Positions 6,743 through 40,440 of a stretch of DNA of 64,000 nt are shown here, piece after piece (positions within the stretch are counted from its first letter, which is position 1; each line of letters starts with the position of its first letter). The stretch is taken from IMG/VR virus record IMGVR_UViG_3300037067_005614, positions 111 to 64,110 of that record, one strand, 5' to 3'. The notes under the pieces were generated by a model. It was not told the origin of the DNA. It made no database searches and saw nothing but the letters and a program-made list of their open reading frames with translations. The position numbers were made by a program, and so were the translations under genes. The stretch is from a virus (lineage: Duplodnaviria > Caudoviricetes).

Positions 6743-7129
6743 ATGGCTTTGACAGCAGATCAACGTAGAGTGAAGGAGCAGTGCACGGCAGTCTATATTG
6801 CCACAATCAAAGATGAGAATGGGACAGCCCTTACCTCTGGTGATTTATCTACTCTAACTCTGACTCTCTATGATAAAGACACTGAGGCCATTATCAATAG
6901 CAGAGACAGCCAAGACGTTCTCAATAAGAACGGCGTGACTGTAGGCGCAGCCGGGGCCCTTACTTGGGTGATGACACCAGACGACAACGTCATCGTAACT
7001 ACCACGTCCTATGCTCCTGGGCAATGGGAATCTCATATTGCTCTGTTTGAGTGGACCTGGAGTAGCAGTACTAAAGCTGGCAAGTATCAGGTGCAAATTG
7101 ATGTTGAGCAAATGGCGAAAGTGACTTGA
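6743..7129 (+). CDS. Putative virion adaptor (BppU-like Ig fold)
   Basis: 128-aa beta-rich ORF, tightly packed in the structural operon. Confidence 0.4.
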   Translation: MALTADQRRVKEQCTAVYIATIKDENGTALTSGDLSTLTLTLYDKDTEAIINSRDSQDVLNKNGVTVGAAGALTWVMTPDDNVIVTTTSYAPGQWESHIALFEWTWSSSTKAGKYQVQIDVEQMAKVT

Positions 7130-7132
7130 TCC

Positions 7133-7636
7133 ATGGCTTCAATCAACAACTTGAGATCATTAGAAGCAAAGATCAAAGCGTTAGCTGACCGCTATGGCAG
7201 TAAGAATCCTGTGGTAGTTGTTGGATTCACTCAGAGCTATGCAGTCCACGTCCACGAGAATACCCAAGCCCATCATCAAGTTGGACAAGCCAAGTTTTTA
7301 GAACAGCCGGCCCGCCAGTTACAGAAGCAATTAGGAACCATTGTAGAGCAAGTGACTTCCAAGTCAAAAGACCTAGAGAAGGGGTTGTTGACAGCAGGTA
7401 TGCGATTGCAGCGAGAGGCACAGCTACTGACTCCGGTGGATACCAGCGCTTTGAAGGCTAGTGCTTTCACCGATTTGGAAGAGAACCTGGAGGCAGCATC
7501 TAGCAAAGCCTATCGTTACTCCGAAGCAATTAAGGCTGGTAAGCAAGCCTATCGGATGCGTAAGCATCAGGAGATGATTGCGGCAGTTAAGGCCAAGGCA
7601 TGGAAGGCTGCAAAGCGCAAGCGAGGTAAGGCATGA
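7133..7636 (+). CDS. HK97 gp10-like neck/tail-completion protein
   Basis: YAVHVHE...QAKFLEQPA and AQLLTPVDTSALKAS motifs; lies before the terminator and tube genes. Confidence 0.55.
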   Translation: MASINNLRSLEAKIKALADRYGSKNPVVVVGFTQSYAVHVHENTQAHHQVGQAKFLEQPARQLQKQLGTIVEQVTSKSKDLEKGLLTAGMRLQREAQLLTPVDTSALKASAFTDLEENLEAASSKAYRYSEAIKAGKQAYRMRKHQEMIAAVKAKAWKAAKRKRGKA

Positions 7637-8082
7637 GCGGCAGTCTAACTCACACCCCCGCGAACGTACTGCAATACCTGATGGTCGATTTAGGATTAGG
7701 TACGCTACCTACCAGTAGCGGCAATTGGCCAATTTACAATGCCAATGAACCAGACACCCCTGATAACTGTATCACCCTAAGAGACGTGGCAGGAGTCACT
7801 CACGGTAGAGAACAAATTACAGGGGTTATTCAAGAGCATGAAGGAATCCAAATAAGGATTAGGTCGACAGACCATGCAACAGGTTGGACTAAAGCCAATG
7901 CCATCAAAGTTGCTTTGGATAGTAGCATTGCAATGAACAGTGTGTCAATCACAACCTCTACCTATATGGTTCATGCTGTGACGAGGAAGAGCGGGCCATT
8001 TGATATCGGTACAGAGAGCCCTAGCAGTAAGCGTAGGTTATTTACGATTAACGCCGTAGTTAGTCTGCGGCAAGTTAGCTAG
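7633..8082 (+). CDS. Tail terminator / minor capsid-type protein
   Basis: EPDTPDNCITLRD..G, IQIRIRS and FTIN motifs; synteny. Confidence 0.6.
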   Translation: MSGSLTHTPANVLQYLMVDLGLGTLPTSSGNWPIYNANEPDTPDNCITLRDVAGVTHGREQITGVIQEHEGIQIRIRSTDHATGWTKANAIKVALDSSIAMNSVSITTSTYMVHAVTRKSGPFDIGTESPSSKRRLFTINAVVSLRQVS

Positions 8083-8574: not shown

Positions 8575-8649
8575 CCCTAATCCAGCGACCTTAAGCAGCC
8601 CACAACACATATCTCAATTACTGTTACGTTACTTATTAGGAGCGAGCTG

Positions 8650-9102
8650 ATGTCTGAAGAATTGAATTTTGATGACCTGACTACCATTGTCATTCCGGTC
8701 AAGTATCAGGGCAAGTCCTACACACTTAGGGAAGCCGATGAGGCTGCCGCTTGTCAGTATGAGGGGGCTAAGTCTGAATGCTTGAAGCTGGCCAATGGTG
8801 AATTCTCCGGTGTTGATCACAAGAGCATGGCCGCCACTGAACCTCTGTTGGTGTCTCTATGCTTGTTCGATGAGGCAAGCAATAACGTCCCGGTGGAGGT
8901 GGTGCGCAGTTGGCCTAGCCGTATGGTGAAGAAGCTGTTTGAGAAGGCTAAGGAAATCAGTGAGATTGATGTACAAGACGAAGAGACTGTCGTCAAGCAA
9001 GTTGAATTGCTGACCAAACAACTCAACAAGATGCGTAAGGGGAACCCCTCAAAAAACGCGCTAAGCAATACCACAACCAACTCCGCCTCGCCAGCCACCT
9101 GA
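8650..9102 (+). CDS. Tail assembly chaperone (gpG-like)
   Basis: Lies between tail tube and tape measure; slippery heptamer near the 3' end. Confidence 0.75.
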   Translation: MSEELNFDDLTTIVIPVKYQGKSYTLREADEAAACQYEGAKSECLKLANGEFSGVDHKSMAATEPLLVSLCLFDEASNNVPVEVVRSWPSRMVKKLFEKAKEISEIDVQDEETVVKQVELLTKQLNKMRKGNPSKNALSNTTTNSASPAT

Positions 9103-9449
9103 AAGTCAAGGGTCCCTTGCTCAAGTATCTTAAGACTATCTCCCACAGAGAATTCCTCACGTGGATCGAGTGGTTAGAAGAGGAATACAATGAGCCTAGT
9201 CGGTCGGATTACTACTTGATGCAAATCGCCAAACGTGTGCATCAAGGTTGGGCGAAGAATGCTCGTAGCATTGACCTAAAGACTGAGAAGCTAAGGTTCA
9301 AGCCAGCTAACCAGAAGCCTACTGCGGACAGCCGAAGGGCAGCCACGGCTATTTCCAAAGCCGTATGGGCAATGCGGTTGAGCGCTGCTAGGGAAGCCAT
9401 GCGAAAGCAAAAAGAAGCAGAAGCCAGGAGAAGTAAGCGTGGCAAGTGA
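9051..9449 (+). CDS. -1 frameshift extension of tail chaperone (gpGT-like); slippery site A AAA AAC at 9051-9057
   Basis: TCA AAA AAC in the frame of the 8650 ORF; the -1 frame is open (KRAKQYHNQLRL...LLKYLK...) to 9449. Confidence 0.85.
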   Translation, partial: KKRAKQYHNQLRLASHLKVKGPLLKYLKTISHREFLTWIEWLEEEYNEPSRSDYYLMQIAKRVHQGWAKNARSIDLKTEKLRFKPANQKPTADSRRAATAISKAVWAMRLSAAREAMRKQKEAEARRSKRGK

Positions 9450-12400
9450 AACTGAAATTGAACGCCTAGTAGTCCGCCTGGTTGGTGACGTTTCCAAATA
9501 CCAGAAGATGGTAGAGGAGGTGTCATCTTCTACTAGAGAATTCACTAAACTCGAACAGCGAATCAACCACTTAGAGGATTCTCTGAAGCGGAGTAATGAT
9601 GGTGTTGGCAATCTTAACAGTTCTCTTGCCCGAAGTGCTCAGGCTTCAGACATGGCTGGCATCAAGCTTACTGCCTTAGGATACAGTCTAAGTCAGATTG
9701 GCTCAACAATTAGGGGTTTAGGTGGCGGCCTTGGTACGGAGATGCTGAGGGCAGCTAAGGACTTTGAAAAGACCAGCATTTCAATGCGAGCTTTGGTTGG
9801 TAATGCAGAGGATGCCGACAGGCTGCTAAGAAACCTGACTGACTTTGCTGCGAAAACGCCCTTTGAGATGCCCACCCTGCTCGGTGCCACGAAGATGCTG
9901 ATGCAGTATGGCACTAAGGCAGATGAAATCCTGCCAATCCTAAAGAGCATCGGCGATGTTACCGGCGGGGTGGACGCTCAGAAGGTTATGCAGATGTCCT
10001 ACGCCTTTGGTCAGATGTCATCGTCTGGCCGATTGATGGGGCAGGACCTACTACAAATGATCAATGCGGGATTCAATCCTCTAAGCGAAATCGCTAAGAA
10101 GACAGGTAAGTCCGTAGCCACATTGAAGAAGGAGATGGAGTCTGGACGTATTACTGTTACGATGGTAAAAGAAGCATTTGCTAGCGCTAGCGGTAAACTC
10201 GATTTGATGAACAAGCAGTCCAAGTCTCTAGAGGGATTACAGTCAACTCTCAATGATAACATTGGTATCTTCAAGCGCAAACTTGGTGATGAGTTGGTGC
10301 CGGCAGCCAAGGCTTTTGTCGATTGGCAAGGGAGAATGACTGAAGGCTTTGACAACCTCAGCAAGTCTAGCAAAACAGCGATTGCCTATTCTGCTGGGGC
10401 AGTCGAAGTGTTTGGCATTGGAATGGAGAAGCTGTCTAGCGTAGCGATGACCCTCGCTGCAATAAAGCTCTCTGGCATGGGTACTGCCCTCTTAAGCATA
10501 GCTCCAGCCACTATTGCTGCCAGTAAGGCCACAGCAACGTGGCTAAACACCCTCCATAGCGTTGCAGGCACAACCCAGCTAATGACAGGCAGTGCTATTG
10601 CCTACGCAGTAGCCTGGCGGGTAGGGGTTTATGGGGCCATTACGGCCGTTACCTTATCTATCCTAGACGCGGCTTCTGCCCAGGACAAATTGAATGCCGC
10701 CTTTGCAGAGGGAGAATTGCTGTCCAGCAAGTTTAGGAAGTTTGAATCTCAACGTCATGAATTCTACATGCAGATGCCAGCTGGAGCAACTGAAATCCAG
10801 AAGAGGGAAGTCTACCAGAGAGAATCTGAGAGACTAGGTGGTAAAATAAAGGGCAGCCAAAAATCAGTCGGAGCCAAAGAATCCCGCTTGGCTAGGATGG
10901 AAGGGTCATTCGAGGAGGTTTGGTTTTGGAATGAAAAGAACATCAACCAGCTTAAGAATGAAATCAAGAATGACAGGGCAGAGTTAGAGCACCTGCAAGG
11001 CATGGCTGCGGAAGTGTCCAAGCTGCTGAATCCTACTCCAGAAGCTACGGCTGCTGGCGCTGAGATGATTAAACAGCTGGATTTACGGGAGGCTTCTCTT
11101 CGTAAGACAACCACTGAAACAAAAATGCTTGAGGCAGCTAACAAGGGTCTGTCAAAAGCTGAGATGGATATTGTTAGGAATAGAGAACCTCAGGTCTTGG
11201 CAGCTGAAATGATTGCCAAGTTAGAGGAAGAAGCAGAGCAGTATGGCCTGACTGAAAAAGAACTGGAGAAGTACAAACTGAGCTTGGCTGGATTGCCACC
11301 AGCTCTACGTCAAGCTGTAGATGCACATATCGACCTGAAGTACGCAGCCAAGGAATCAGGAAAGATTATTGCTGATATTGAATCCACCATCAAATCTCTT
11401 ACTGAGGAGATTGGGGTCCTGCGGGCTGGATCGAAAGAACAGTATTTGTTGAATCGCGGCTTGGAAGAGCATGCCTCGGCTTCCAGTTTAGATCTACTGA
11501 CCAGAAAAAGGCTGGAGAAGCAAATAGTTGAATCTGAAGCAAACGTACGTAAGGCAATTGAAACTCTTAACGAAGAGGCTGAATCCCTACGCGCCGGTGG
11601 TAAAGCCCAGGCTGAGTTGAATTATGCTATGGAGAACGGGACTGACGCCACTTTAGGATTTGCCTTAGCACAAGCAGAAGCCAATAAAAAATCAGCTGAA
11701 CTAGAAAGTAGTACACAAAAGGCTACCGAAGCCTTCAAAGAAGAGGCTCGGACGGAAAGCTACTTCATGAAGGATCGGGCAGCAGCCGTCGAACGATTGA
11801 CTATTGCTGAAAGAGAATTAGCCAGAGTAAGAAGCCAAGCCAACCAGAGCAAAGTAGAGGCTGCTAGGAAAGCCCTGGAAAACTTAGATAAAGCCAACGT
11901 CAAGAACTACAACCTAGCTAAGCAAGCAGAAAAAGCCAACCTCCCGGGGGCCAAGGAATTTGCCGCACAAGCTAAGATGAATGAAATGCGTGATAGAGAG
12001 CAGAAAGGACGAGAAGAGGCTTTGCGTTTGGCTGAGAAACTGCTCACCCCAGAGCAGAGATTTGCCAAAGCCCAAGAATTTGCTCGTGAGATGCTTGAGA
12101 AGAACATCTACACCTACGAGCAATACAAGAAGGCCATTGAAGAGGCCCGTGCTGAGAAAGCCAAGTTTGACGCTAGCGGAATCAAGCCCTCTCTGATGGG
12201 TAGTGCTGAGTCGATGTGGCGTTTGGCTGAGTACCAAACTGGCATAAGCCAAACCGCCTCCCGTGCCACTAAGGCTTCGGATAACTTCTTAATGATGTCG
12301 CCAGAAGAGTTAGCTAACCCCAAGAACCAGCAACGGTTGCGGGCTCTTCAGGCTAGACTCACTCCACAAGCCTCTAGAGCAGCCTGGCAACAGAACCAGC

Positions 12401-12600
12401 TGATTGAAGGGATTCGAGTCAATAACCAAGGTCGGGACGCTGAGGCAAGACAAGCCCGAGAATTCTTCGGGTCTGATATTGTCTCTAACGAATCCACTGA
12501 CATTCTCAAGGAGATTAGGGACTTGAACCAGAAGCAACTGAGTAAAGACCTTCTGGAAGGTATACAAATAACAAACGCTAGCAATGGGGGAGGCCTATAG
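9439..12600 (+). CDS. Tape measure protein
   Basis: 1053 aa, helical; FAAKTPFE...GQM.SSGRLMGQDLLQMINAGFNPL tape-measure domain. Confidence 0.92.
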   Translation: MASETEIERLVVRLVGDVSKYQKMVEEVSSSTREFTKLEQRINHLEDSLKRSNDGVGNLNSSLARSAQASDMAGIKLTALGYSLSQIGSTIRGLGGGLGTEMLRAAKDFEKTSISMRALVGNAEDADRLLRNLTDFAAKTPFEMPTLLGATKMLMQYGTKADEILPILKSIGDVTGGVDAQKVMQMSYAFGQMSSSGRLMGQDLLQMINAGFNPLSEIAKKTGKSVATLKKEMESGRITVTMVKEAFASASGKLDLMNKQSKSLEGLQSTLNDNIGIFKRKLGDELVPAAKAFVDWQGRMTEGFDNLSKSSKTAIAYSAGAVEVFGIGMEKLSSVAMTLAAIKLSGMGTALLSIAPATIAASKATATWLNTLHSVAGTTQLMTGSAIAYAVAWRVGVYGAITAVTLSILDAASAQDKLNAAFAEGELLSSKFRKFESQRHEFYMQMPAGATEIQKREVYQRESERLGGKIKGSQKSVGAKESRLARMEGSFEEVWFWNEKNINQLKNEIKNDRAELEHLQGMAAEVSKLLNPTPEATAAGAEMIKQLDLREASLRKTTTETKMLEAANKGLSKAEMDIVRNREPQVLAAEMIAKLEEEAEQYGLTEKELEKYKLSLAGLPPALRQAVDAHIDLKYAAKESGKIIADIESTIKSLTEEIGVLRAGSKEQYLLNRGLEEHASASSLDLLTRKRLEKQIVESEANVRKAIETLNEEAESLRAGGKAQAELNYAMENGTDATLGFALAQAEANKKSAELESSTQKATEAFKEEARTESYFMKDRAAAVERLTIAERELARVRSQANQSKVEAARKALENLDKANVKNYNLAKQAEKANLPGAKEFAAQAKMNEMRDREQKGREEALRLAEKLLTPEQRFAKAQEFAREMLEKNIYTYEQYKKAIEEARAEKAKFDASGIKPSLMGSAESMWRLAEYQTGISQTASRATKASDNFLMMSPEELANPKNQQRLRALQARLTPQASRAAWQQNQLIEGIRVNNQGRDAEARQAREFFGSDIVSNESTDILKEIRDLNQKQLSKDLLEGIQITNASNGGGL

Positions 12601-29801: not shown

Positions 29802-30350
29802 TCAATCGACGTGCGTCCATCTTCTCTTATAGGCTATTGTTCTTATCCAGCTTTGTCTGACACCAAATTCTAAGGCTAATGCATAGCTGCTGTTTGGACC
29901 CCTGCGATTACCTTTTATATACCTTCTGCGTATCTCTAATACATCATTCTCTGTTAGTTTTGCCATAGGGTTCTTAGACCCATCTTTGGCTGTAGATAGC
30001 ATACCCTTTAAGGAGGCATCATGTAGGTTTTCTTGGTGGGTGCCAAGAAATAGATGAGCAGGATTAACACAGGATGGATTATCCCCACCAGGACAATTAT
30101 GACACACAAGTTTCCCTTTTGGGATCTTGCCGAAGTGAATCTCCCAAGAAAGCTTATGGGCTGGGTAGTTTCTGCCATTCAGCCATATCAACCCATAACT
30201 ACCTCCTCCAAGAGCCCCAGTCCAAATCCAACAGGATTTTGTTTTATGGACTTTCTCCCAGAATCTAACTAAAACTGGGCGGTGATTGGTTCGATAAACA
30301 CCATGTTCTGATGGAATACTAGTAGCAATTGGCCTAGTCGTAATTGACAT
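29802..30350 (-). CDS. HNH homing endonuclease
   Basis: RFWEKV...CWIWTG...YG...AHK.SW...VCH.C...DNPSCVNPAHLFLGT..EN; C-terminal AKLTE..V.EIR HTH. Confidence 0.9.
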   Translation of the reverse strand: MSITTRPIATSIPSEHGVYRTNHRPVLVRFWEKVHKTKSCWIWTGALGGGSYGLIWLNGRNYPAHKLSWEIHFGKIPKGKLVCHNCPGGDNPSCVNPAHLFLGTHQENLHDASLKGMLSTAKDGSKNPMAKLTENDVLEIRRRYIKGNRRGPNSSYALALEFGVRQSWIRTIAYKRRWTHVD

Positions 30351-30354
30351 AGAT

Positions 30355-30449
30355 GCTGTCCTCTAACAGCCCCCATAATAAAAATGGCGGCAGACTGGTG
30401 AGGTGCCAGCTTTTCGGAAGCTAACCTAGCCGCCATTCCTATTATACCT
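30355..30449 (-). promoter_or_regulatory. AGGTATAAT promoter and structured leader RNA of the HNH gene
   Basis: -10 at 30441-30446; AATGGCGGC/GCCGCCATT closing stem; GCTGT-TAGAGG-ACAGC hairpin around the RBS. Confidence 0.6.
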
Positions 30450-32575
30450 TAGCCGGTAACCCAGATTAGTTCCTCGATTGCTCTGGTAATTCCGACGTAG
30501 TAGAGGTGTTCTTCTTCGGCTCTCTGCCAAGCAGTTTTTGCCATGGGGTGTGGGCAAGGGGCTTCCTTGGTGCAAATAAAGAAAACCCGCTTTGCCTCTA
30601 ACCCTTTAGCGCGGTGTATTGAGCTAAGCCTAATGCCCTGGCTTTGGCTATCGTCGGTGAAGAGAGATTCAATCTTGGTCACAACCTGGGCTGCTGTTTG
30701 CTGCCCATCGGTGAAGGCCAGGATACAGTCGTGCCTATCTTGTAGACCGATGATCTTTGCCTCATCGGGGTTGCGCTTGGCGTTCTCTCGCTTGGTTTCC
30801 TCGTGCAACCAAGTGTCTACCCCAGCAATCAGTTGTACTGCGCTGTAACAGGCTAGGCTGTCGCCTTCCTTAATTCCGAAGATCTTCTTGATAGTCTTGA
30901 TTAGCCCAGCACCAACATCTATCCCTTGGATGTTTGCCTTCCGGCCTTGCCTAATGAATCTGAAGCACTCACCGACTAGTGGCGCATTGCATCGGCAGAG
31001 CACCATGTCACCAGGTAATACCAAGTCATGATAGCTGCACACGGGAGCCCCAGAAGACCAATGCGCACCAGGATATAGGCTATCGCACTTAAATGTGGCG
31101 TGACCTACTTTTCCTTCGGGGTTGGTCTCGAATGCCTCGAAGTCAGGCACATACTTCTGGGCTTCACGGACGATTGCCTTGCCACAACGGCGGGTAACGG
31201 TGAGAGGTAGGTGCAAGCAACCGCGTTCGGTTTGCTTGAGTTCAGCTTCCAGTCGTGACATGCTTTGTGAATCTGCCCCTGCCCAGCCATAGATCGCCTG
31301 AAGAGGATCACCGCAGTAAATCAACCGTTTGCCAGCCATCTTCGTTAACATCTGCTGAGCCTTGTTCAAATCTTGACTCTCGTCGATTAAGAGCAGATCG
31401 TATTTGAAGACGGGTAGATTTAGTGTAACAGGTAAGTAGATCATGTCGTTGAAGTCAATGCAGTTGTCCTTAGCGACATCCTTGCATCGCTCCAATACGC
31501 GGGGCACTAAGGCAAACGCCTCCTCTGATTGGCCATTGACGTCGATGTCGTAGTAAGAGGCTATGTTCTGTAGTGTACCCACCCAATCAAGCTCACCTGC
31601 GGGGTAAGATTCGCAATGCCCATCCATCTCAACCATGTTCATTTTGCACAAACCGACCAATTCCTCGGTAGCCTTGAGCAGTGTGGGTTTCTTTGCACGC
31701 AAGACACGAATGTCCTCTTCAAGCAACTCACAGATGATGTCCTGTACGCGGTAGGAGTTTGGGGCCCCAAGGTTGGGAAAGGCATTACGGATTGCGCGAT
31801 AGCCCAAACCGTGCATCGTCATGGCATCACAACCAAGCGGCACTCGATTCTTCAGCTCAGCGGCAATCGACTTGTTGAATGCCGCAAAGCAAACTGTCTT
31901 GGCTCCTTTAGATAACTCCATGGATTCCCAAATGGCTGCCTGTTGGGGACTAGGAATCAAATCGCTGGGTAATCCCTTGATTCGCTTAAGACCTTCAATC
32001 AAAGTCGTCGTCTTTCCAGTACCTGCACGCGCCTCGATGATCAAGTGTGGGGCATTATCTTCGTGTTGAACTGACTTGGATTTCAACTTGTTGGCTAACG
32101 ATGTTGAGGCTAAAGCAAACCCCTTAGTGATCGACTCAGTGGCTTCTGTAATTACCTTGCTTAGCTTTTTGGTTTGGTTGATTTGAACCTCAACAACTGG
32201 CTTGCTTGGTTTTCGATTGTTTTCCAGAATCTGCTGGGTTACCTTCTGGGCGTTGCTGAGGGGTTTGGTTGATTTCAAACTCATACTTGCCGTTTGTTTT
32301 TCGATATCGTCCAGTAAATCCAAAGCTTCTTGCTTCGACACAGGCACGACAGTTACACTTGGTTCTGCCGAATTTGACTGTGTGTCTGAAGAACGTCGGC
32401 TCAAACCAGTTGTAACCGATGTACAGTGAATAGGGCGCGTGGGCTGCTTGGCTGCCCCTTTCTTGGTTGCCTTCTTTACTGGAGTCTTCGTGTTTTTCTT
32501 GGTGGCCTTTGGCTTACGGGCCGTCTTGCGAGCTACCTTGGCGGGAGTCTTGGGCTTGGGAGTCTTACGGGTCAT
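30449..32575 (-). CDS. UvrD/Rep-like SF1 helicase with Lys-rich N-terminal extension
   Basis: ARAGTGKTT, AFNK, IDESQD, GDPLQAIYGW, LTVTRRC, SIHRAKGLE, YVGITRA. Confidence 0.9.
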   Translation of the reverse strand: MTRKTPKPKTPAKVARKTARKPKATKKNTKTPVKKATKKGAAKQPTRPIHCTSVTTGLSRRSSDTQSNSAEPSVTVVPVSKQEALDLLDDIEKQTASMSLKSTKPLSNAQKVTQQILENNRKPSKPVVEVQINQTKKLSKVITEATESITKGFALASTSLANKLKSKSVQHEDNAPHLIIEARAGTGKTTTLIEGLKRIKGLPSDLIPSPQQAAIWESMELSKGAKTVCFAAFNKSIAAELKNRVPLGCDAMTMHGLGYRAIRNAFPNLGAPNSYRVQDIICELLEEDIRVLRAKKPTLLKATEELVGLCKMNMVEMDGHCESYPAGELDWVGTLQNIASYYDIDVNGQSEEAFALVPRVLERCKDVAKDNCIDFNDMIYLPVTLNLPVFKYDLLLIDESQDLNKAQQMLTKMAGKRLIYCGDPLQAIYGWAGADSQSMSRLEAELKQTERGCLHLPLTVTRRCGKAIVREAQKYVPDFEAFETNPEGKVGHATFKCDSLYPGAHWSSGAPVCSYHDLVLPGDMVLCRCNAPLVGECFRFIRQGRKANIQGIDVGAGLIKTIKKIFGIKEGDSLACYSAVQLIAGVDTWLHEETKRENAKRNPDEAKIIGLQDRHDCILAFTDGQQTAAQVVTKIESLFTDDSQSQGIRLSSIHRAKGLEAKRVFFICTKEAPCPHPMAKTAWQRAEEEHLYYVGITRAIEELIWVTG

Positions 32576-32858
32576 GCTTAGTTCCTTAGTATGGTTACAG
32601 CTAATTACCAGTTGGTTTCGCCTTTGCCGGCGCAAACTGTGCACGTTGAATACACTAGAGGATCATCTGGTCCGGTCATCATGCCTGAGTTAACCCCATG
32701 GGCTTGCTGTCCAGAGCCTCTGCAAGTAGGGCAGATGTTCTTGTGATTTTGGCAGTAAGGAAACCCTTCCATAGCTTTCCCCAGACAACGCCCTGCATAC
32801 AAGTACACGAACGCACACTGACGACTTATACTTCCTTCACACATGGATACACCTCTTG

Positions 32859-33407: not shown

Positions 33408-33836
33408 TTATGTTGTGGGCCAGTAATAAGGTAATCGTCCGTTCTCGTCTGGTACAGCAGATTTCTCAGACCATCCAAATTTGCTGTACCAATCATAGTT
33501 CTTGTAGAGCAGAGCTGCTCGATGGCTGCTATGCAATCGGTCATCGCCAAGCCAGGGAGGCAACACTAGATTGGTTGAGATGAGCTTTTCTACAACTAAG
33601 ACTGCCCAATCTCGCTGTCTGTAGTCGTAACCCCTGTCTAGCAATTCGAAAATCCCAAACTTCATGTATCTAGCCAGGGCCCCTTCGTAGCCTCGCCACA
33701 TCCTGGAAGCTGGGTGATTAGGCCAGCCACCACGAATCAGCGTGAGGCACTCTCGATAGACTTGGTTACCTAATCGCTTAGGGTCTAGGCGCCTAACGCT
33801 CTTTTCCAAGTCTGGGTATGGAAGGAAGACCTGCAT
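33408..33836 (-). CDS. MSMEG_6728 / pyrimidine-dimer glycosylase (DenV-like) family protein
   Basis: MQVFLPYPD...LD.KRLG.Q..E...GW.NHPA..MWRGYE.AL...PPWLG...H.SH...L...Y.WP. Confidence 0.8.
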   Translation of the reverse strand: MQVFLPYPDLEKSVRRLDPKRLGNQVYRECLTLIRGGWPNHPASRMWRGYEGALARYMKFGIFELLDRGYDYRQRDWAVLVVEKLISTNLVLPPWLGDDRLHSSHRAALLYKNYDWYSKFGWSEKSAVPDENGRLPYYWPTT

Positions 33837-36308: not shown

Positions 36309-36653
36309 CTACTCCGCGACCGAGTCCTCGACTTCTGCGACGGCCTCCTTTAGTTTGCGGCGCAGTGTCTCGGCCTCATCGCGTGAGAGCCCCGGCAGGC
36401 TGTGGCTGTATCTGTAGCCGGCGTGAAATTCGTCCTTTCTCCCGCTGACGATGGCCATCTCAATCATGCGATCAATGGCCTCGTCAGGTGTGTCGCCACG
36501 CCCGCACACCTCATGGTGTGCGTGTTCGCTGCAGGCGGCCTGTTCGCTGTGCCACTCGTACCCATGGGCTCGATACTGCGATCCCTTGCGGCCCACGTCG
36601 TAGCTGCCTACGTGAGCAATTTGCATGTACCCCAGTTCCTGATTCGTTTTCAT
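36309..36653 (-). CDS. Hypothetical protein
   Basis: GAGGA RBS, 114 aa. Confidence 0.5.
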   Translation of the reverse strand: MKTNQELGYMQIAHVGSYDVGRKGSQYRAHGYEWHSEQAACSEHAHHEVCGRGDTPDEAIDRMIEMAIVSGRKDEFHAGYRYSHSLPGLSRDEAETLRRKLKEAVAEVEDSVAE

Positions 36654-36778
36654 GGCTCAAGTCCTCAACCGGATTTCTGCCGGTCCAGGACACTGTAGAT
36701 CGGGCAGCGTCTCCCGTGCGGACGGTCCGCTCCGTCGGGCTCCGCAGAGCCCTTGGGGCCGGGCCGGCGGTTAGGCTG

Positions 36779-37502: not shown

Positions 37503-37700
37503 TTACTGATCACAAAATGAGTGGATACCCTCATTAGTTGCAACTACCGCAAGCAGGGCGAGCAATTTACTGTCTGATACAGTCCCCCACTGCACCGAGT
37601 AGTAAGTGGCAAATACTTCCCCGACTCGGTTAGCCTGGCTGTTAGACAGGTCGTGAGCCTTAGCGAATTTCGGTAGTAGAGATTCGATTCTTGGATGCAT
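37503..37700 (-). CDS. Hypothetical protein
   Basis: 65-aa ORF directly downstream of the hammerhead. Confidence 0.45.
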   Translation of the reverse strand: MHPRIESLLPKFAKAHDLSNSQANRVGEVFATYYSVQWGTVSDSKLLALLAVVATNEGIHSFCDQ

Positions 37701-37730
37701 GTCTAATCTCTCATTGCTTGGGGTTAGGTT

Positions 37731-37796
37731 CGGCTTGACTCATCAGCATTACGGTAGCCATCCGTAGTGGACCCAGCAAGGTCGCTGGGTTTCGTC
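37731..37796 (-). ncRNA. Type II hammerhead ribozyme
   Basis: Minus strand: GAC-GAAAC-CCAGC(GACCUU)GCUGG-GUC^-CACUACGG(AUGGCUA)CCGUAAUG-CUGAUGA-GUC-AAGCCG. Complete catalytic core and three stems. Confidence 0.9.
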
Positions 37797-38474
37797 TTGT
37801 GTCTATCGGGGATAAGAAATTTGGGCCTTGATTCTCGCTTTCTCTTTACGCCATGCTAGCTGGTAGACCCGACCTTGCATTTCTTTCTGATGGATATCTT
37901 CGGCGATGCTAGTTAACTGGGCCAGAATTTCTGCCACAGACCAAGTGGGGAAGCCTGCCCACGATTGCTGATGATACTTATCTTGCAGTAGGTTAGCGGC
38001 TTCAGCGACAATCCGCTTGGACCATCCAGTATTGCGACGCAATTCAGACATCGCCCCCAACAACTTCTGTCCGCCTTAGTAACTACCAAATTCCGGTTGC
38101 GTTTTGCTAGACATAGCTTAATTCCTCATGCTTGGGACTGAGAAAGGAAACTAAGGGCCCCTTACCAGAGTTGCACTGGTGCGCTGTTAGGGGCTCGGCA
38201 TTTGTTGTGGTGTTGCCATCACCAATTATGTTGGGTGCCTACTAGATTCTTCGGGCGTCCCGCCAACTGCTTTTCGCTGCGCCACATCCCACCGGGCGTT
38301 GTACCGGTCACCGCTTGGGTTGAGGGCCGTTGGTCTGGCCCTCGTAAGCGGGTGGGTATTTACGGCTGCCAGCCATCCTGTGATCTAGCCTTGCATCGCA
38401 CTGCCATTTGCCGGGCATTTGGTAGGCGGGGCAAGGGGTTTCCCCAGGCTTGGCCACGCGGCAACCGTTCGACT

Positions 38475-38486
38475 TGTCAAAGAGCA
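38475..38486 (-). promoter_or_regulatory. boxA-like antitermination element
   Basis: TGCTCTTTGACA vs rrn boxA TGCTCTTTAACA, just downstream of the promoter. Confidence 0.6.
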
Positions 38487-38503
38487 TTGCTTTACTACCC
38501 TCT

Positions 38504-38600: not shown

Positions 38601-38624
38601 GAAAAGCCCCCTAGGGAGGGGGCT
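38601..38624 (-). terminator. Rho-independent terminator after ParB-like gene
   Basis: AGCCCCCT-CCCT-AGGGGGCT-TTTC on the minus strand. Confidence 0.6.
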
Positions 38625-38694: not shown

Positions 38695-40440
38695 CTAACG
38701 GGGCTGGGCCTGACGCAGATCGGCTACGGCTACCACTTGCACGTTGCCGGCACCGCGGAAGCCTGTGTCCACCTTGACTCGCACCACCTTGTCGTTGCTT
38801 TCGACGATGCGACCCCGCCAGTGCTCTCCATCCCTGTCGAACACCCACGTGAGTGTGCCAACCTTGGCCTTTGGCTTGCTAGTGGGTAGCTTCTTGGTCT
38901 TCTCGGGGGCTTTGCTCTTGGGAAATTTGGCCTTGGTTGCAGGCTTGGGGGCAGATGTTGGTTTGGCGAGGGTTAGCTGCGATAGGTCAACCTCCCAATC
39001 CCCATCTTGGCTGTGAACCATTACCTTCTCTTGGCCGTTGTTGCACTTGTACGGGTCATCTAGTAGTTTGCCTAGGTAATGGTCACCATCGGATTCTTCG
39101 ATCCAGGCCACATCATCTTTCGACCACATCTTGCCGGCACGCTTTGGGTTAAGGACTAGCTTCTCAGCCTTGGGTTTGCGAACCTCTTTCTTGCTCTCTT
39201 CGATTTCCTCTGGGGTTGGGTCGGTCTCAACCGTGGTTTCTTCCTCATCTTCGTCTGGGCAACCCAGGTCAATACCGCCCACGGCTGGATAGTCCAACAA
39301 CTCCTTCTGCCCTGCGTCGTTGATGTGGTAGTCAGGCGTTAGGGCACTGACGGAGAGCTTGTCTCCATTCATAAGAGCCGTCCAAGCATTGGCGAAGATG
39401 CTGGTCTTTTCGGCTGCTGACCCTGTGCCTTCCATTCTGGCCTTGACTAAGGTATCCCTCAGGGGCTGCAACGCCTTGGATCCCCCAGCTAGCTCTACCC
39501 AGAAGTCCCTAGCTTTGTCCCACAGACTCCAGTCCAGCAAACCTTCGTGTGGAACGTCTGCCAATCGATAGTCACTATTGCTGTAGTCAGTGTGGGACTG
39601 CCCCATTAGGTAGCACAAGCAGGCAGCGTAGCCAGGGCTGACCCATTGGCCGATACGGAATACCCGCTCTCCATCCTCTGTGGTGTCTGTCGTGTTCTCT
39701 TCGAAGATGTGTTTGACGCATTCGAGTAACCGTTCATGCCTGGCGAGCAGGTCTAGGGAGTCAGCGTGACTGCGCTTGTTGCTGTAGTTGCCTAGGGAGG
39801 CTCTGGTACGATCCCAAAGCAGTTGGAGAGCATAGTGAGTCATGCGGGCCAGTATCTTGCGGCCCTTCTCTGGCACTGCCGCGAAGTACTCGCTGCGGCA
39901 GATGACCTCCCACAATGTACGTGGTTTGCCGGTGTCGATGGTGTTGACAGTAGCATCATCCTCATCGACACCCAAGATCATGCAGGTTTCCAATACCGGT
40001 TCGGTTGGCCAGTACTTAGCCCATCGTTCCTTATTCTTTGCCCACTCTTGCCATGCCAATACCAAACCAATCAGCCTATGCTGAGCACTGACGGTAACCC
40101 CAGTCTTACCAATAATGAGAGTCTCACCATTGAGCTTCCACCTGTGATGGAGAATCTCGCTGCACCATTTACGGGCTGTCGCCATGTCGAAAGGCCGATT
40201 GCCAATGTTGTTCCAGAGCCGTACCTTCTTGCCGTAGCGATCGACTAGGGTATAGTTGCCGTCGGCTACGTCGCTGTCGTCCCAATCAAGCAGATCCTTG
40301 GCTTGGGATACGGTGAGAGCATCCTTACCCATACAGATGCGCGCTTGGGGTTCAGGATACAGCACTGCGCGGGACTTGGTCTTGCTGGGGTTCGAGGACT
40401 TGGCGGAAACAGCATTATCGGTCTTGTGGATCTTGGGCAT
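38695..40440 (-). CDS. ParB/Srx-like N-terminal domain protein with acidic linker and putative SH3/Tudor-like C-terminal domains
   Basis: NRP...W.LNGETLII.......SAQHRL...IDTGKPRT pattern (variant of DGQHRL). Confidence 0.6.
   Translation of the reverse strand: MPKIHKTDNAVSAKSSNPSKTKSRAVLYPEPQARICMGKDALTVSQAKDLLDWDDSDVADGNYTLVDRYGKKVRLWNNIGNRPFDMATARKWCSEILHHRWKLNGETLIIGKTGVTVSAQHRLIGLVLAWQEWAKNKERWAKYWPTEPVLETCMILGVDEDDATVNTIDTGKPRTLWEVICRSEYFAAVPEKGRKILARMTHYALQLLWDRTRASLGNYSNKRSHADSLDLLARHERLLECVKHIFEENTTDTTEDGERVFRIGQWVSPGYAACLCYLMGQSHTDYSNSDYRLADVPHEGLLDWSLWDKARDFWVELAGGSKALQPLRDTLVKARMEGTGSAAEKTSIFANAWTALMNGDKLSVSALTPDYHINDAGQKELLDYPAVGGIDLGCPDEDEEETTVETDPTPEEIEESKKEVRKPKAEKLVLNPKRAGKMWSKDDVAWIEESDGDHYLGKLLDDPYKCNNGQEKVMVHSQDGDWEVDLSQLTLAKPTSAPKPATKAKFPKSKAPEKTKKLPTSKPKAKVGTLTWVFDRDGEHWRGRIVESNDKVVRVKVDTGFRGAGNVQVVAVADLRQAQPR

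Follow-up and report, generated by a model that had tools for sequence, protein, structure and literature searches.

A predicted type II hammerhead ribozyme in a short intergenic spacer of an uncultured tailed phage

The first natural type II hammerhead ribozymes were described by Perreault et al. (2011; PMC3088659). According to this report most of them have a pseudoknot of at least four pairs between loop I and the 3' tail, and stem II may be as short as two pairs. They are frequent near prophage genes, with clusters that flank single genes. Three polycistronic fragments were cleaved in vitro, and it was proposed that long phage transcripts are cut into gene-length mRNAs. Candidates were accepted when the pairs 10.1-11.1, 1.1-2.1 and 15.1-16.1 were intact and the short stems had no multiple mispairs. 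A 2019 review calls the purpose of such ribozymes undefined (PMC6765202). The class, the pseudoknot and the gene-flanking habit are already published (PMC3088659); the element reported here is an ordinary, newly found member of this family.

The DNA analyzed (the window, 64,000 nt) is nearly all of an IMG/VR record of 64,110 bases with an estimated completeness of about 90%. The source is an uncultured tailed phage with genes arranged in three blocks. The blocks and the genes of interest are:

1-27 kb, plus strand: structural genes, with the tape-measure protein at 9439-12600
about 28-40.5 kb, minus strand: block which contains the hammerhead operon and the next seven entries
29802-30350, minus strand: HNH endonuclease
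30449-32644, minus strand: UvrD-like helicase
33408-33836, minus strand: pyrimidine-dimer glycosylase
37503-37700, minus strand: 65-aa ORF downstream of the hammerhead, without family; begins with ATG at 37700, 27 nt past the ribozyme tail
37712-37708, minus strand: GAGAG, a Shine-Dalgarno-like run which precedes the ATG at 37700
37803-38063, minus strand: 86-aa ORF upstream of the hammerhead, without family; ends in TAG (37805-37803), 5 nt ahead of the ribozyme
38695-40440, minus strand: 581-aa protein, unnamed PHROG
41-64 kb, plus strand: replication genes, among them a Sak4-like annealing protein, an exonuclease, DNA polymerase (53411-55705) and thymidylate synthase

About ten small ORFs without family are also present in the minus-strand block. 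The label 'early' for the minus-strand genes is plausible, judged from gene content. Phage DNA is present in landfill and groundwater metagenome runs; a search of sequencing runs listed no RNA run with this phage. With a 2.5-kb query around the hammerhead, blastn against GenBank phages gave no match, and no relatives were found in viral contigs via the 581-aa and 86-aa neighbor proteins. Two other RNAs were seen. A tRNA-Pro gene (anticodon UGG; 50046-50120, plus strand), the only tRNA gene of the phage, is located within the replication-gene block. An int-alpA RNA (Rfam RF02996; 53.1 bits, cut-off 35.8) at 30370-30436 (minus) sits between the helicase and HNH endonuclease genes on their strand.

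A preliminary description of this DNA, made from the letters alone, had claimed a type II hammerhead between early genes. Indeed, a 102-nt spacer runs from the TAG stop of the 86-aa ORF to the ATG of the 65-aa ORF, separates these two co-directional small ORFs and is mostly filled by the hammerhead. Its parts, all on the minus strand, are:

37728-37797: whole type II hammerhead including the 3' tail; full-length matches to Rfam RF02276 (34.1 bits) and to model R1 introduced below (68.7 bits)
37794-37796: stem II, 5' strand GAC (11.3-11.1), pairs with GUC at 37737-37739; family covariation in helix 1
37791-37793: core G12-A13-A14, from sequence; invariant columns in alignment A1 (below)
37771-37790: stem III hairpin, 7 bp including A15.1-U16.1 (37790-37784/37777-37771) and a 6-nt loop (37778-37783); present in the minimum free energy fold, family covariation in helix 2
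37769-37770: predicted cleavage site after C17 (37770), placed by the GUC triplet and by aligning the site with the two models
37747-37769: stem I hairpin, 8 positions (37769-37762/37754-37747) with one C·A mismatch at the third pair (37767/37749) and a 7-nt loop (37755-37761); family covariation in helix 3
37756-37760: pseudoknot, loop-I strand UGGCU, pairs with 37731-37735
37740-37746: core CUGAUGA (C3-A9), from sequence; invariant columns in A1
37737-37739: stem II, 3' strand GUC (10.1-10.3), from sequence
37731-37735: pseudoknot, 3'-tail strand AGCCG, pairs with loop I; a feature described for type II (PMC3088659)

All positions of the catalytic core are consensus (37746-37740, 37793-37791 and GUC at 37772-37770) and the core-adjacent pairs G37739-C37794, C37769-G37747 and A37790-U37771 are intact. 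Loops close stems I and III and the RNA enters and leaves through the open stem II, which is the type II permutation. The anatomy claimed in the preliminary description was recovered throughout. The complete core of GAAAC, GUC and CUGAUGA is on the minus strand where it had been placed; stem III agrees and has seven pairs once A15.1-U16.1 is counted; the single mismatch announced for the eight positions of stem I is the C·A; and the GAC/GUC pairing of stem II (37796-37794 with 37739-37737) is as proposed. The suggested contact between loop I and the tail amounts to five complementary pairs, one of them G·U, and these pairs covary in the family. The cut predicted between 37770 and 37769 agrees with C17 at 37770, and the distance to the next start codon (ATG at 37700), put at about 70 nt, is 69 nt by count. 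The sequence can adopt the full hammerhead fold: the nested hammerhead structure has -18.8 kcal/mol vs -19.2 kcal/mol for the minimum free energy fold with the pseudoknot uncounted, the 3' half having a slightly more stable alternative in nested-structure folding, and the fold of 76 nt is not unusually stable (z = -1.55; 18 of 200 shuffles were equally good).

Taken with the family and the related phages considered below, the comparison of sequences makes it very probable that this is a functional type II hammerhead in the 102-nt spacer between two co-directional small genes of a minus-strand phage operon. From hammerhead chemistry the following course can be predicted. Once the 3' half is transcribed, stems I to III and the pseudoknot of loop I and tail would fold, and the RNA would cut itself after C17. 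The upstream fragment would end with the stem III hairpin and a 2',3'-cyclic phosphate, while the downstream fragment would carry a 5'-OH and the stem I hairpin at its start, with 69 nt between the cut and the next start codon. Both kinds of ends follow from hammerhead chemistry (PMC6765202). The cut would split the operon transcript into separate mRNAs, and the hairpin-capped, non-monophosphate ends may confer independent stability and translation on each side, a role of the kind proposed by Perreault et al. (PMC3088659).

The family was collected by scanning viral contigs for CGAAAC and GTC, followed by CTGATGAG plus three free bases and AGCC. This yielded at least 122 loci. Among the matches listed 94 were unique and 79 of these had acceptable stems I, II and III by a simple criterion; the 15 failures were mostly parser artefacts caused by an internal GTC, and many of them scored well against the model. 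The 79 were aligned (A1), and the covariance model R1 was built from them with the window excluded. With filters off, R1 scored 68.7 bits at the window site (E about 4e-15, a rough value). The next best of the 31 hits listed for both strands of the 64 kb had 11.6 bits. Part of the 68.7 bits is built in because the window also fits the pattern that collected the training set; the pattern did not cover the stems, the sequence of loop I or the stem II preferences at positions 1 and 2. The score is mid-range among 135 matches (the window and 99 loci), and the loop-I sequence is identical to that of L028 over 13 nt.

The second-best R1 hit (36650-36717, minus strand; 11.6 bits, E = 0.6) has GAGAC for GAAAC and UUGAGGA for CUGAUGA and was set aside. 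It is located on the same strand in a different gap between genes of this operon and ends with AGCC followed by AUG. The UUGAGGA doubles as the Shine-Dalgarno sequence of the next gene. Either this is chance or it is a decayed hammerhead in which a core strand has turned into a ribosome-binding site.

Covariation was examined in an alignment of the 135 matches (A2; 120 distinct rows) in which the three nested helices and a hand-added pseudoknot were counted. In A2, which was fitted to the nested structure and so leans that way, with the pseudoknot outside of the model, 95.3% of the cells were paired vs 68.0% in shuffles. Two-sided changes were observed in 20 of 22 pairs, all five pseudoknot pairs among them, and the covariation score was 0.664 vs 0.155 in shuffles. 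None of 500 shuffles reached the observed values, and slid controls paired to 42.3% at most. Extra copies in the flanks, which were not chosen by the pattern, have loop/tail pairs such as GGUU/AACC, GACC/GGUC and AGCC/GGCU.

Here we also examined where such hammerheads reside relative to genes. From the matches listed 95 distinct viral contexts were used, the window included, each with 300 nt or more on either side. In 76 of the 95 a same-strand frame of at least 50 codons stops within -15 to +9 nt of the ribozyme 5' end; at random positions this was the case in 208 of 1900 (11%), and for antisense ORFs at the 3' side in 5 of 95. For 67 of the 76 the stop codon has its last base no more than 3 nt from ribozyme position 1 (-3 to +3), so that it overlaps or abuts stem II. 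The outer stem II pair is often formed by the G of UAG, or by the base after UGA or UAA. A literature search, not specific to this point, brought up no description of the tight juxtaposition of stop codon and hammerhead. On the other side, 92 of the 95 contexts have a same-strand ORF of 40 aa or more whose start is no further than 50 nt downstream. This statistic is less discriminating because 1035 of 1880 random positions (55%) share the property. The downstream start codons are mostly 13-20 nt after the tail. The layout of the window, stop 5 nt before and start 27 nt after the ribozyme, matches that of the family. A greedy longest-ORF caller was discarded for these counts as too crude and replaced by the stop and start counts; the AUG within CUGAUGA led it to extend ORFs, and in contigs rich in GC it chose long antisense frames that are spurious. 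The counts sharpen the published picture of intercistronic processing sites which begin at the upstream stop and have the next start a few tens of nt further on.

Such proximity might mean that the element is a regulated, translation-coupled switch. A terminating ribosome or a downstream 30S subunit would unfold stem II or the pseudoknot, and cleavage would report translation. The stop codons at position 1 of the ribozyme, with the window's own stop 5 nt upstream, and the starts closely behind the tail are in line with this. However, compact phage genomes are expected to pack tightly anyway. Further, hammerheads fold and cut quickly, and since this single cut is irreversible, masking by a ribosome can only delay cleavage. 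In the window the ribosome-binding site is clear of the ribozyme as well: the tail ends at 37728 and the Shine-Dalgarno-like run is at 37712-37708. We consider a switch unlikely. An influence of translation is also conceivable for the functional intercistronic hammerhead which we prefer. Stem II and the core GAA would be covered when a ribosome terminates at the TAG upstream, and translation may on this account delay or modulate cleavage, which is speculation.

What kind of genes follow the hammerheads was asked by scanning 81 distinct complete downstream ORFs against PHROGs. Two entries of L075 were omitted because they had the same coordinates as those of L069; the L075 locus has the hammerhead pair of L069, and the omission was by coordinates, not by protein sequence. 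No PHROG family was assigned to 55 ORFs. The 26 which belong to some family include eight ATPases (phrog_1297), four RusA-like resolvases, two HNH endonucleases and one each of a DNA methyltransferase, an anti-restriction protein, an SSB and a transcriptional regulator, i.e. family-assigned downstream genes are of the early or DNA-metabolism kind. Many phage contigs carry arrays of two to four co-oriented copies 300-700 nt apart, one per small-gene gap (three or four copies in L021, L047, L053 and L060; further examples are L067, L042, L069/L075 and L109). Copies within a contig are often identical or nearly so; in L042 two 66-nt copies bracket a 137-aa ORF. By R1 the window phage has a single hammerhead in its 64 kb. 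A sub-threshold twister-P1 match was noted in L007 (1943-2001, minus strand; 40.8 bits, cut-off 67.2), about 380 nt upstream of a type II hammerhead on the same strand.

The pattern-derived hammerhead loci showed no synteny with the window, and in a tblastn search with 14 window proteins against the hammerhead loci only the HNH endonuclease matched (three loci). A lineage-specific pattern had no matches in the genome and the viral contigs and was uninformative because it likewise missed L124, which fits the pattern. Relatives were identified by the helicase, which is 71% identical in L124 and 58% in L125. Both carry a hammerhead upstream of the helicase gene and on its strand, L124 at 7932-8002 (R1, 55.2 bits) and L125 at 8591-8655 (R1, 41.9 bits). 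The 581-aa gene, an intergenic leader, a 129-aa ORF, the helicase and the genes beyond are common to L124 and the window. The hammerhead of L124 is in the same interval as that of the window, between the leader and the homologue of the 129-aa ORF. The layout around it is the same as in the window, with a 101-aa ORF that ends 3 nt ahead of the ribozyme and a 152-aa ORF that begins 21 nt behind it. Positions 1-2 of the L125 ribozyme are shared with the stop codon of a 77-aa ORF. Comparison of the window with L124 gave seven two-sided compensatory changes and no disruptions, and no pair was lost. Stem II is identical. In stem III one G-C is changed to A-U. Five two-sided changes are in stem I, where an A-U replaces the C·A mismatch. 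In the pseudoknot one C-G has become U-A, and one G·U has become A-U. The core is identical except for U7, which is C in L124. Position 7 is a variable position in hammerheads. The seven compensatory changes argue for ongoing selection on the hammerhead fold in this phage lineage. The type II identity claimed at the outset finds support from several sides: RF02276 matches end to end, R1 scores 68.7 bits, the pairs of the Perreault rule are intact, and compensatory changes are present in two relatives. Variation at the site within contigs of four DNA runs was looked for as well; X4 and X6 cover the ribozyme and show no differences, X5 and X7 are without coverage.

The ORFs which flank the hammerhead in the window and in L124 are not homologous (BLASTP upstream, E = 17; downstream, E = 0.001 over 17 residues only). 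Judged from these alignments, the hammerhead appears to be the conserved element of a slot in which the flanking genes were exchanged. That two related phages keep the ribozyme while the genes around it are unrelated fits the intercistronic-processing picture. Possibly the role is a double one: at the RNA level the hammerheads might insulate new genes, and at the DNA level they might serve as homology 'linkers' for swaps of small early genes. In other phages near-identical copies are present on both sides of single small genes. If the insulator role is true, a newly acquired gene would be expressed independently of its neighbors. We regard the double role as distinctly unlikely.

Next, the window element might be a decayed or slow relic, descended from an active ribozyme, inefficient in cleavage and kept only as a spacer. 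The C·A mismatch in stem I, the minimal stem II of 3 bp and an Rfam score below the gathering cut-off point in this direction. Yet the core is all consensus and the three core-adjacent pairs, which constitute the acceptance rule, are intact; a stem II of 2-3 bp is common according to the same report (PMC3088659). The alignment columns of the mismatch (70/106 in A2) are unpaired in 8 of 119 family rows. The seven compensatory changes in L124 are at odds with decay. Overall, a relic is very unlikely.

The Rfam score deserves comment. The check with hammerhead covariance models that the preliminary description had suggested came out divided: RF02276 (Hammerhead_II) matched end to end, but its 34.1 bits are under the gathering score of 37 bits. 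Accordingly, no hammerhead was listed in an Rfam gathering scan over the window, and the site surfaced only with E-value thresholds. The E-value was 2.2e-5 in a search of 351 nt, 9.6e-7 with RF02276 alone over the 64-kb record and 0.004 for the whole window against all 4227 Rfam families, where it was one of three hits with E ≤ 1. The score is 2.9 bits under the cut-off because the Rfam model treats two traits of the phage subclass, a stem II of 3 bp and a single linker A ahead of AGCC, as insertions. A scan of 20 sister loci gave 23 type II hits, 16 of them above 37 bits and seven at 32.8-36.8 bits. As those seven are below 37 bits too, 34.1 bits is normal for the phage subclass. The gathering score of 37 is an operational cut-off which reflects no structural feature and bisects this subclass; with it, a considerable part of the genuine type II hammerheads of phages goes unlisted (7 of 23 sampled). 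On its own 34.1 bits is only borderline across about 250,000 windows scanned, and certainty consequently rests on the family model and the related phages. A core-only pattern, CGAAAC-N12-24-GTC-N22-40-CTGATGAG, occurred once in the window, vs 0.01 times on average in 100 shuffles. That the match is due to chance, or that the hairpin does something else, with stem III for instance serving as a plus-strand terminator, has a negligible probability and is effectively refuted by the R1 score and the related phages: one 34.1-bit hit is conceivable over billions of bases and a scan for terminator-like structures lists 37769-37792 (plus), which is stem III read on the other strand with a T-rich run behind it, but no plus-strand genes are nearby, 68.7 bits stand against 11.6 for the next best hit with 0.01 core-only matches expected per window, the full motif beyond the hairpin is conserved in two related phages, and the matches in these phages differ at many positions, unlike assembly duplicates.

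The operon which carries the functional hammerhead proposed here seems to begin with a conserved leader. The stretch which separates the 581-aa gene from the 86-aa ORF (38165-38360, minus strand) is poor in ORFs and has 83% DNA identity to L124, and the first 80 nt of the leader are nearly identical in both (L124 7007-7212). A perfect TATAAT at 38509-38504 (minus) marks the apparent operon start. About 20 nt past it is GCTCTTTGACAA (38485-38474, minus), which we take to resemble the consensus of the boxA antitermination signal. L124 keeps the TATAAT and the boxA-like motif at 6955-6997, the latter with one T-to-C change. Among 125 loci an exact match to the boxA-like motif is present only in the window's own DNA and in L124; for this reason it is not a general companion of hammerheads within 1.5 kb. 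The leader fold (38160-38500, minus) is not unusually stable overall (z = -0.05). L124 has an additional 71-aa gene bracketed by a repeated 63-nt piece of the leader (7479-7541), which looks like the insertion of this gene as a cassette. Run X5 contains a variant of 38300-38486 in another context, which is L124-like. Behind the 581-aa gene, about 70 nt past its stop (38695), there is a terminator-like hairpin with a T-run (38605-38624, minus). It is kept in L124 (6772-6803) with changes only in the loop, and this conservation suggests that the hammerhead operon is a transcription unit separate from the 581-aa gene. Cleavage might sever the leader RNA from the elongating polymerase and so limit the reach of antitermination.

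How does the element compare with known systems? It shares core, topology, pseudoknot and place in phage polycistronic units with the type II hammerheads of RF02276 as described by Perreault et al. (PMC3088659). Nothing of substance differs; the window element is 2.9 bits below the gathering cut-off. The prophage clusters reported for Clostridium scindens, Azorhizobium caulinodans and the ardA locus of Agrobacterium tumefaciens are intercistronic and on the same strand like the window element (PMC3088659). Among the sister loci, one downstream gene codes for an anti-restriction protein, others for ATPases, RusA-like resolvases and HNH endonucleases. In contrast to the prophage clusters there is only one ribozyme in the window, and for this reason it could split a transcript but could not excise a single gene. 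Its flanking genes are without family. Similarly, the single copy sets the window phage apart from phages with arrays of three or four copies. The element is one more well-supported example of a known family and as such of modest weight, and the context data could help to design an experiment on what hammerheads do for phages. A man-made counterpart exists in the synthetic insulators of the RiboJ type, which were engineered from satellite-RNA hammerheads and are placed between a promoter or upstream cistron and a gene. Their self-cleavage leaves a defined 5'-OH end and a hairpin on the downstream mRNA and uncouples expression from the upstream sequence. The window element differs in being a natural phage hammerhead and, by analogy, would be expected to work alike.
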